Part shown: positions 18,553 through 20,349 of the stretch, one piece after another
How the letters are laid out: the number at the start of each line of letters is the position of its first letter
Position numbering within the stretch: position 1 is the stretch's first letter
Origin: Strigamia acuminata
Taxonomy: Eukaryota
Direction: 5' to 3'
Assembly (NCBI GenBank): GCA_949358305.1
Contig: OX442314.1
Location: forward strand, 21,266,001-21,330,000
Length of the DNA stretch: 64,000 bases
Translations under genes and position numbers: made by a program
The notes under the pieces: model-generated
Seen by the model: the letters and a program-made list of their open reading frames with translations, nothing else
What the model was told of the DNA's origin: nothing
Databases searched by the model: none

Positions 18553-20349
18553 ATGGCGATGGAGGCTAAAACCATGAAAGAAAAATTAATGGTCCAAGTA
18601 GCGGAACCGTCATCGACAAGTCTTGCTAAAGTAACGGTAGTCGGTGTAGGACAAGTAGGAATGGCTTGTGCTTTCTCTATTCTCACACAGGTAAATTAAG
18701 GTTAAAACAAATATTTTATTTTATGAATTTAAAAAAATATATAAAAAATAAACATTTTATATTGTGTTAGGGAATAGCGAGTGGAATTGCTTTGATTGAC
18801 TGCGTGCCGGAAAAACTGGAGGGCGAATTGATGGATTTACAACACGGGCTTTCTTTCTTGAAAAATATTAAACTCGAGGCTAGCATAGGTAAATTTCAAA
18901 AATAATAATTAATAATCAGAATTAATTTAATTTATTCATAGATTATTCCGTGGCTCAAGACTCGAAATTGTGCATAATAACTGCAGGCGCACGTCAACGA
19001 GAAGACGAATCTCGTTTGGCTTTGGTCCAAAGAAATGTCGAAATATTTAAAGGTACCAATGAAACAATAAAAAATAAACTTAATTTTATTTTACAAATTT
19101 TACAGGTATAATTCCCAACTTGGTTAAATATTGCCCGGATGCTATCTTTCTTATCGTGTCAAATCCAGGTAAAAAACAATCATATTTAACTTTTTTAAAA
19201 AAAATAATCTATTAATTTTTTTTTTGCAGTTGATATTATGACTTACGTTGCTTGGAAATTGAGTGGTTTACCCAAACAACAAGTTATCGGCAGTGGGACC
19301 AATTTGGATTCATCGCGATTTCGCTTCCTAATGAGCAAGAGACTCAATGTTGCACCATCGAGTTGCCATGGATGGATCATCGGGGAACACGGCGATTCTT
19401 CTGGTATACATAAAATGTTATAATTGAAAAGAAAGAAATAAATTAAAGTTAATTTCAGTTCCTGTATGGAGCGGAGCCAATGTGGCGGGTGTTAAATTAA
19501 GTGACGTCAGTCCGAAATTGGGTCAAATTGACGATCCTGAAAATTGGGCCGATTTGCATAAAAAGGTGGTACAAAGGTAATTTAGAATGAAAAAAATTTA
19601 TGTAAATTGACTTATCCTTTTCCTTTCTGCTAACTAACACCCATTTATAGTTCAACGGAAATAATAAGACTCAAAGGCTATACATCATGGGCCATCGGCC
19701 TTAGTTGTACAAATATTTGTCGATCTGTTCTTTTCAATGGAAGATTTGTCTTTGCTATCACAACCTCTGTTAAGGTCTGATCTTAAAACAAAACATGGAG
19801 GTAATCCATGTTCCAGTATAGTTGTGAACAGCTTTCACGACTACGCTGGAATTGGTGCTCTCTGAAATTGTCCAGTCTAAATGTTATGTCTCGCTTTTTT
19901 TCCTTTCCAAATTCGTTGAAAATTATTTTATTAAATTTAGAAACTGTTGAAAATTAAAATTAAATGGTATTTTTAGTGCTTATGATGTAATTAAGTACAA
20001 GGGATACACATCGTGGGCAATAGGTGTATCGGTTGCGGCGCTTTGCCTTTCGCTTATGAAAAATTTGCGTAATGTTTATGCTGTGTCTACTTGTGTTAAG
20101 GTTAGTGCATGGCATGTTTATTTGTTTTTAGCTTGCTGTTTTTACTATTGCGAATTAATTTATTAAATTGGTTTTATTATACAGGGAATTCATGGCATTG
20201 ACGAGGACGTGTTCTTGAGTCTTCCATGTGTTCTGGGACAAAATGGAGTAACTGATATTATTCGCCAAAACCTGAACGACGAAGAGAAATTTAAGTTGCA
20301 TGAAAGTGCGAAAACTTTGTTCGAAGTTCAATCCGGTCTTGTTTTCTAG
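18553..20349 (+). CDS. Ldh: L-lactate dehydrogenase with a duplicated, mutually exclusive penultimate exon
   Basis: Exons 18553-18690, 18771-18888, 18942-19052, 19106-19168, 19230-19403, 19459-19576, then 19651-19774 OR 19977-20100, then 20185-20349. Motifs: [83 protein letters not shown]. Confidence 0.97.

Follow-up and report, generated by a model that had tools for sequence, protein, structure and literature searches.

A centipede L-lactate dehydrogenase gene with two tandem copies of exon 7 that probably act as mutually exclusive exons

Does a lactate dehydrogenase (LDH) gene in which one exon is present twice specify one enzyme or two? This question is raised by the L-LDH gene located at positions 18553-20349 (+ strand) of the window (the whole stretch of DNA analysed, 64 kb), which comprises eight exons, the seventh in two copies, A and B. 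As judged from sequence comparison, exons 7A and 7B are probably mutually exclusive and would yield two LDH subunits from one gene.

All exons lie on the + strand. Exon 1 (18553-18690) carries the ATG and encodes the N-terminal arm and the start of the NAD-binding fold. It is followed by exon 2 (18771-18888), exon 3 (18942-19052), exon 4 (19106-19168), exon 5 (19230-19403), encoding DSSR and the catalytic His in GEHGD and assigned to Pfam Ldh_1_C, and exon 6 (19459-19576), whose donor (AAG/GTAATT) is the common upstream donor of both alternative exons. The constitutive exon 3 encodes the motif GARQRE..SR, which we take, from established LDH structure, to be the mobile active-site loop. Alternative exon 7A (19651-19774; donor AAG/GTCTGA) encodes a segment of the Cys19/Arg24 type and alternative exon 7B (19977-20100) one of the canonical Val19 type, while exon 8 (20185-20349), the last coding exon, contains the TAG stop. 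The Pfam Ldh_1_C domain was matched in the gene, neither 41-aa exon scoring in Pfam on its own, and 2965 LDH relatives were found, of which the best 120 are listed. Both translated isoforms contain the Rossmann GxGxxG motif, the loop Gln and Arg (RQ..ESR), the Arg of DSxR, the catalytic His of GEHGD and the Thr of GYTSW; the roles of these residues are taken in part from PMC4014127.

The preliminary description of this DNA had recognized two tandem homologous exons, served by the donor at 19576 and the acceptor at 20185, and the coordinates, frames and flanking sites are confirmed here: each copy is 124 nt long, enters in phase 2 and leaves in phase 0, is bounded by AG and GT and is free of stops. 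It had also held that the inclusion of both exons or of neither breaks the frame, and this proved correct. A message containing A alone or B alone has an open frame for a 336-aa LDH. The A+B message meets a stop two codons into B (284 aa), 115 nt upstream of the last junction, and the message skipping both exons encodes 251 aa, with a stop 34 nt into the last exon. The copies are identical at 67 of 124 nt (54%) and at 20 of 41 residues. Their ungapped BLOSUM62 score is 108; no other of the 127,750 frames of 41 codons in the window exceeds 24, and 10,000 shuffles reached at most 30, so that a third copy of exon 7 is absent from the 64 kb. In two runs from a single study, a contig in each spans 18300-20700 without any difference from the window and without an intron-skipping joint, although these runs may be the window's own source. 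An assembly artefact or join error was ruled out, since the copies are just 54% alike and whole contigs span both.

Several other genes surround the LDH gene. Directly downstream lies a mitochondrial carrier gene (21328-22984, +), which matches the carrier part of the Strigamia maritima protein T1J5G8 at 55/61 and 36/38 positions; the LDH-carrier fusion in T1J5G8 is likely an annotation error, which would mean that the gene order is the same in S. maritima. The window also contains a MyoD-type gene with Pfam Basic and HLH domains (14330-14833, -), a multi-exon gene (approximately 16400-17815, +) whose match to LPMO_10 (lytic polysaccharide mono-oxygenase) is just over the Pfam cut-off, and a V-ATPase subunit E gene (approximately 23785-24990, -). 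A single 5S rRNA gene (15530-15648, +) and a tRNA-Arg(TCT) gene (18006-18078, -) are placed among the protein genes.

Both copies of exon 7 are under selection. Comparison of A with B alone, within one gene, gave a pS of 0.72 (dS 2.43) and a pN of 0.37 (dN 0.52), and 14 of the 20 shared residues are specified by different codons, which bears out the earlier proposal of purifying selection on both. Across 212 fetched segments, 19 columns show at least 90% conservation, and A and B each retain 16 of these. When neutral copies of B were simulated, 273 of 20,000 stayed open with at least 14 conserved columns at 20% change, 1 did so at 35% and none at 50%.

The swapped segment contributes to the substrate pocket. 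According to PDB matches (E 1e-8 to 1e-5), its first position corresponds to residue 237 of human LDH-A. An excerpt of PMC4014127 describes a closed ternary LDH complex in which Thr247 forms a hydrogen bond with oxamate and Ala237 makes a hydrophobic contact, and in which loop closure alters the conformation of Ser236, Ala237, Tyr238 and Ile241. Thr247, Ile241 and Ile251 are retained by both exons; the preliminary description had placed the Thr of GYTSW in this segment. It had further remarked that exon A departs from the conserved SAY(E/D)VIK. Ser237 and Thr238 occur in exon A alone, Ala being found at 237 in 208 and Tyr at 238 in 204 of 212 segments, and the Ser-Thr pair of exon A was present in none of 340 fetched segments. 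The catalytic residues and the mobile loop are encoded by exons common to both isoforms. The two 336-residue subunits are set apart by 21 of the 41 residues in the pocket-lining helix. From these substitutions a difference in kinetics or in substrate range is predicted, and the A isoform would be an active LDH with altered pyruvate affinity, loop closure or substrate range.

The rarity of Ser237 and Thr238 is at the same time the main argument for another explanation, namely that exon A was formerly used but is now rarely spliced and decaying, so that essentially one enzyme would be made, from B. Two near-invariant residues are changed in a manner seen in no other segment, and in our trees exon A forms a long branch (0.43-0.70), which fits relaxed selection as well as a new function. 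We regard decay as improbable: the exon has retained its exact length, its frame and both splice sites, and it keeps as many conserved columns as B.

Records of related proteins bear on the choice between decay and two working subunits. The nearest named protein, S. maritima T1J5G8, shares 39/41 residues with exon B, 21/41 with exon A and 231/271 with the remainder. In a tree of 35 proteins from which the segment had been removed, the window LDH was sister to that of Strigamia (100), the two falling among the myriapods (98), which makes a geophilomorph centipede the likely source. The T1J5G8 model carries the B form only, which agrees with decay of A; it also makes B the probable default form and suggests that a second LDH isoform may be missing from myriapod annotations. 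The closest matches to exon A among the fetched proteins reach 28-30 of 41 residues. Against decay, the Arg24 type exists in protein records of scolopendrids. Between Scolopendra viridis and S. mutilans, 17 of the 41 segment residues are exchanged, as against 21 of the other 271 (p = 1.7e-7); between S. viridis and Hemiscolopendra marginata the segment shows 3 differences in 41. The simplest reading is that one scolopendrid gene would make both the Arg24 type and a B-like type, although the records are from different species and the types may instead stem from paralogous genes.

Comparison of 131 full-length proteins, out of 248 fetched, yielded 156 pairs with a likeness of at least 88% in the remainder of the chain, and ten of these differed by at least 10 residues inside the segment (eight decapod and two scolopendrid pairs). 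Seven pairs differed by at least 12, all of them decapod or scolopendrid, in comparison with one pair in any of six other windows of 41 columns. In Macrobrachium rosenbergii, the RefSeq isoforms X1 and X2 (XP_066972703 and XP_066972704) have 12 differences within the 41 residues of the segment and none in the 335 others; the earlier statement that exon switching in LDH has precedents is thus well founded. Both copies were found in tandem in P0126, a read-through ORF whose exon is identical to that of Eriocheir, and in P0129, a gene model of Armadillidium nasatum, and the exon position, boundaries and flanking residues are the same in P0126 and P0212/P0239. All five millipede-type LDHs (that of Chamberlinius and four grouping with it; P0133, P0238, P0069, P0130 and P0159) are of the Cys19/Arg24 type, and with the Val19 type in none of the five this lineage may have kept the Cys19/Arg24 copy alone. 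In the isoform sets of two insects, Agrilus and Macrosteles, no segment differences were seen, a comparison of two sets and not a survey of insects. No locus carrying the segment twice on the matched strand was detected in a metagenome scan of 80 loci from 236 relatives, none of which was recognized as myriapod or decapod genomic DNA. Neither an exon-A-like orthologue nor a further two-copy ORF appeared in the best 150 of 403 matches of a profile search (132 of them new), and a search with the exon A sequence alone gave two candidates and no match.

The origin of the pair was approached with trees and AU tests. In a tree of 41 columns and 47 rows, several of which had been retrieved with a profile of A-like sequences and whose groups were named once a first tree had been built, exon A fell into a group of 16 rows (95/84) together with the Cys/Arg segments of the millipede type and of malacostracans. 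With the same rows, a clade of A and B had p = 0.0035 under a mixture model and 0.051 under LG+G4, a centipede-only clade 0.0017 and 0.021, and a malacostracan-only clade 0.042 and 0.014. Both the placement of A and the rejection of the A+B and chilopod-only clades argue against separate origins of the centipede and malacostracan pairs, with Cys19, Arg24 and Phe34 shared through convergence, as does the tree of the 36 named or two-copy rows, in which A still joined the downstream exon of decapods and isopods (93/98). Yet in AU tests of these 36 rows lineage-specific duplications were rejected in none of four cases (p 0.13-0.20), and the two types stand in inverted order: the window has the Cys19/Arg24 exon upstream of the Val19 exon, whereas in the malacostracan P0126 and P0129 the Val19 type comes first and the Cys19/Arg24 type second. 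Independent origin also gains from P0127, where the two copies form a group of their own (96/86), so that exon 7 seems to have been duplicated more than once. An independent origin of the centipede pair has, in our judgment, an even chance, and a single old origin and convergence of the Cys/Arg type, weighed on these alignments, appear about equally probable. Of the orthology with crustacean exons that the preliminary description had proposed to examine, the shared position and boundaries stand; the order is reversed, and the grouping by type obtained with 47 rows is not decisive with 36. P0127 itself is a read-through ORF with another tandem pair of the LDH exon, separated by a spacer of approximately 11 codons, and its second copy also lacks the equivalent of Tyr238. 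It is rather doubtful that the fullest scenario applies as a whole, namely that centipedes and malacostracans have in common an isozyme switch of ancient mandibulate origin, with one copy left in other lineages and with the order here reversed, a hairpin separating the exons and an A-remodelled pocket (Ala237Ser, Tyr238Thr) of shifted 2-oxo-acid specificity.

How the joining of A to B might be avoided was considered in the 202-nt intron between them, which is longer than the plain steric limit. That limit is given as less than 50 nt from donor to branch point in an excerpt of PMC5740500 and alternatively as 60 nt in an excerpt of PMC13762713. Two adjacent hairpins, of 7 and 16 bp, are predicted within the intron at 19793-19851 (+), with a folding energy of about -29.7 kcal/mol on the sense and -24.8 kcal/mol on the antisense strand. 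The best 60-nt window of the intron folds at about -29.8 kcal/mol, against a mean of -10.9 in shuffled introns, none of 300 of which was as low when the choice of the best window was repeated. Only 7 of 12,788 such windows across the 64 kb, and 1 of 3,636 GC-matched ones, situated at the same place, fold as well as the double hairpin. Other 60-nt windows at -29 to -33 kcal/mol lie near 10981, 29296, 48321 and 60961. The folds of the whole intron (z -1.75) and of a 641-nt region (z -1.34) were not significant, and no long-range docking or selector pairing exceeded shuffles in any of eight region pairs. A candidate distant branch point for exon B (CTAAAT, picked by eye, at +106) and a pyrimidine tract occupy 19875-19908 (+). 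Folding would bring this candidate to about 51 nt from the A donor, a borderline distance with respect to 50 or 60 nt, and an AG 36 nt upstream of exon B, between the candidate and the acceptor, complicates the assignment. The donor of exon A (GTCTGA) is non-consensus, as might be expected of a decaying exon; the unusually stable hairpin predicted next to A speaks against decay.

Two short motifs near the alternative exons are leads. The branch-point-like (and STAR-protein-like) motif CTAACTAAC (19630-19638, +) lies 14-18 nt upstream of exon A, and its pattern, present in 31 of 100 shuffles, is not unusual. The Rbfox-type element TGCATGGCATG (20106-20116, +) lies 6 nt into the intron downstream of exon B; its pattern, which was chosen after sight of the sequence, has one match in the window and occurred in 3 of 100 shuffles, while TGCATG alone is common (23 matches in the window). 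In worms, according to an excerpt of PMC4165533, 11 of 29 exon clusters have UGCAUG elements at their flanks.

Splicing would likely select either A or B and thus give rise to two subunits, B supplying the presumed default enzyme and A a putative second one. The joining of A to B would likely be discouraged by the predicted double hairpin and the weak A donor, leaked A+B messages would likely be removed through their premature stop, and the choice of exon may be regulated by tissue through the Rbfox-type element, which is a lead. The same premature stop, 115 nt upstream of the last junction, and an intron long enough for splicing would also suit a mainly regulatory cassette, in which inclusion of A together with B leads to an early stop and lowers LDH output. 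A poison exon, however, needs no conservation of its protein sequence, yet the dN of A is far below dS, and the prawn annotation treats the copies as alternatives to each other, so that we consider such a role very improbable. For mutually exclusive splicing, as proposed in the preliminary description, the anatomy, the selection and the relatives speak in favour; the frame shift guards the arrangement unevenly, the message skipping both exons being stopped inside the last exon.

PKM is an example of mutually exclusive exons. Sonanez-Organis et al. (PMID 22586706) are said to have reported, in 2012, that alternative splicing of LDH in Litopenaeus vannamei gives two subunits whose expression depends on hypoxia, and kinetic follow-up studies of these subunits reportedly exist. 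We liken the L. vannamei subunits to the window gene as alternatively spliced products, the match to the same segment being established with Macrobrachium. Yue et al. reportedly described, in 2013, exclusion within Dscam exon 17 in which RNA structure acts together with a steric limit. In excerpts of PMC5740500 and PMC6071210, tandem-duplicated mutually exclusive exons are, as here, homologous neighbours of equal length and the same phase, with a length that is not a multiple of three; such lengths are given for 60% of human mutually exclusive clusters (excerpt of PMC5740500). Dscam exon 17 and OGDH exons 4a/4b (excerpt of PMC7969005) share with the window gene the arrangement as a two-exon cluster, with a stable hairpin close to the donor of the first exon and with the pyrimidine tract of the second exon distant from its acceptor, whereas in the window the branch point is a candidate, its folded distance of about 51 nt is borderline and the hairpin is predicted from one sequence. 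Vertebrate LDH-A, LDH-B and LDH-C have a homologous fold and segment (the PDB matches above), but they are separate genes differing along the whole chain, unlike the window gene, which swaps one segment of 41 residues. By analogy, A and B subunits could form mixed tetramers.

The LDH exon 7 switch itself is already known, as the same segment is annotated as an isoform pair in Macrobrachium. Decapods have, like the window gene, the Val19 and Cys19/Arg24 types in one L-LDH gene, and the Macrobrachium isoforms differ in the 41-residue segment alone; the window gene, in contrast, is myriapod, has the order reversed and in exon A has changed the Ala237 and Tyr238 that decapod segments keep. No paper on LDH exons in myriapods was found in a literature search that covered few subscription journals. 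New here are the presence of the pair in a myriapod, with its exons in reversed order, unusual residues in the pocket and a predicted hairpin between the copies, and the two segment types of scolopendrids.

If this reading is true, LDH isozymes made by splicing extend from decapods to centipedes. The 41 swapped residues would then amount to a natural experiment in which the helix closing over pyruvate varies within an otherwise identical protein, and the pair poses the question whether one old duplication was later reordered or the exon was duplicated repeatedly with convergent residues.
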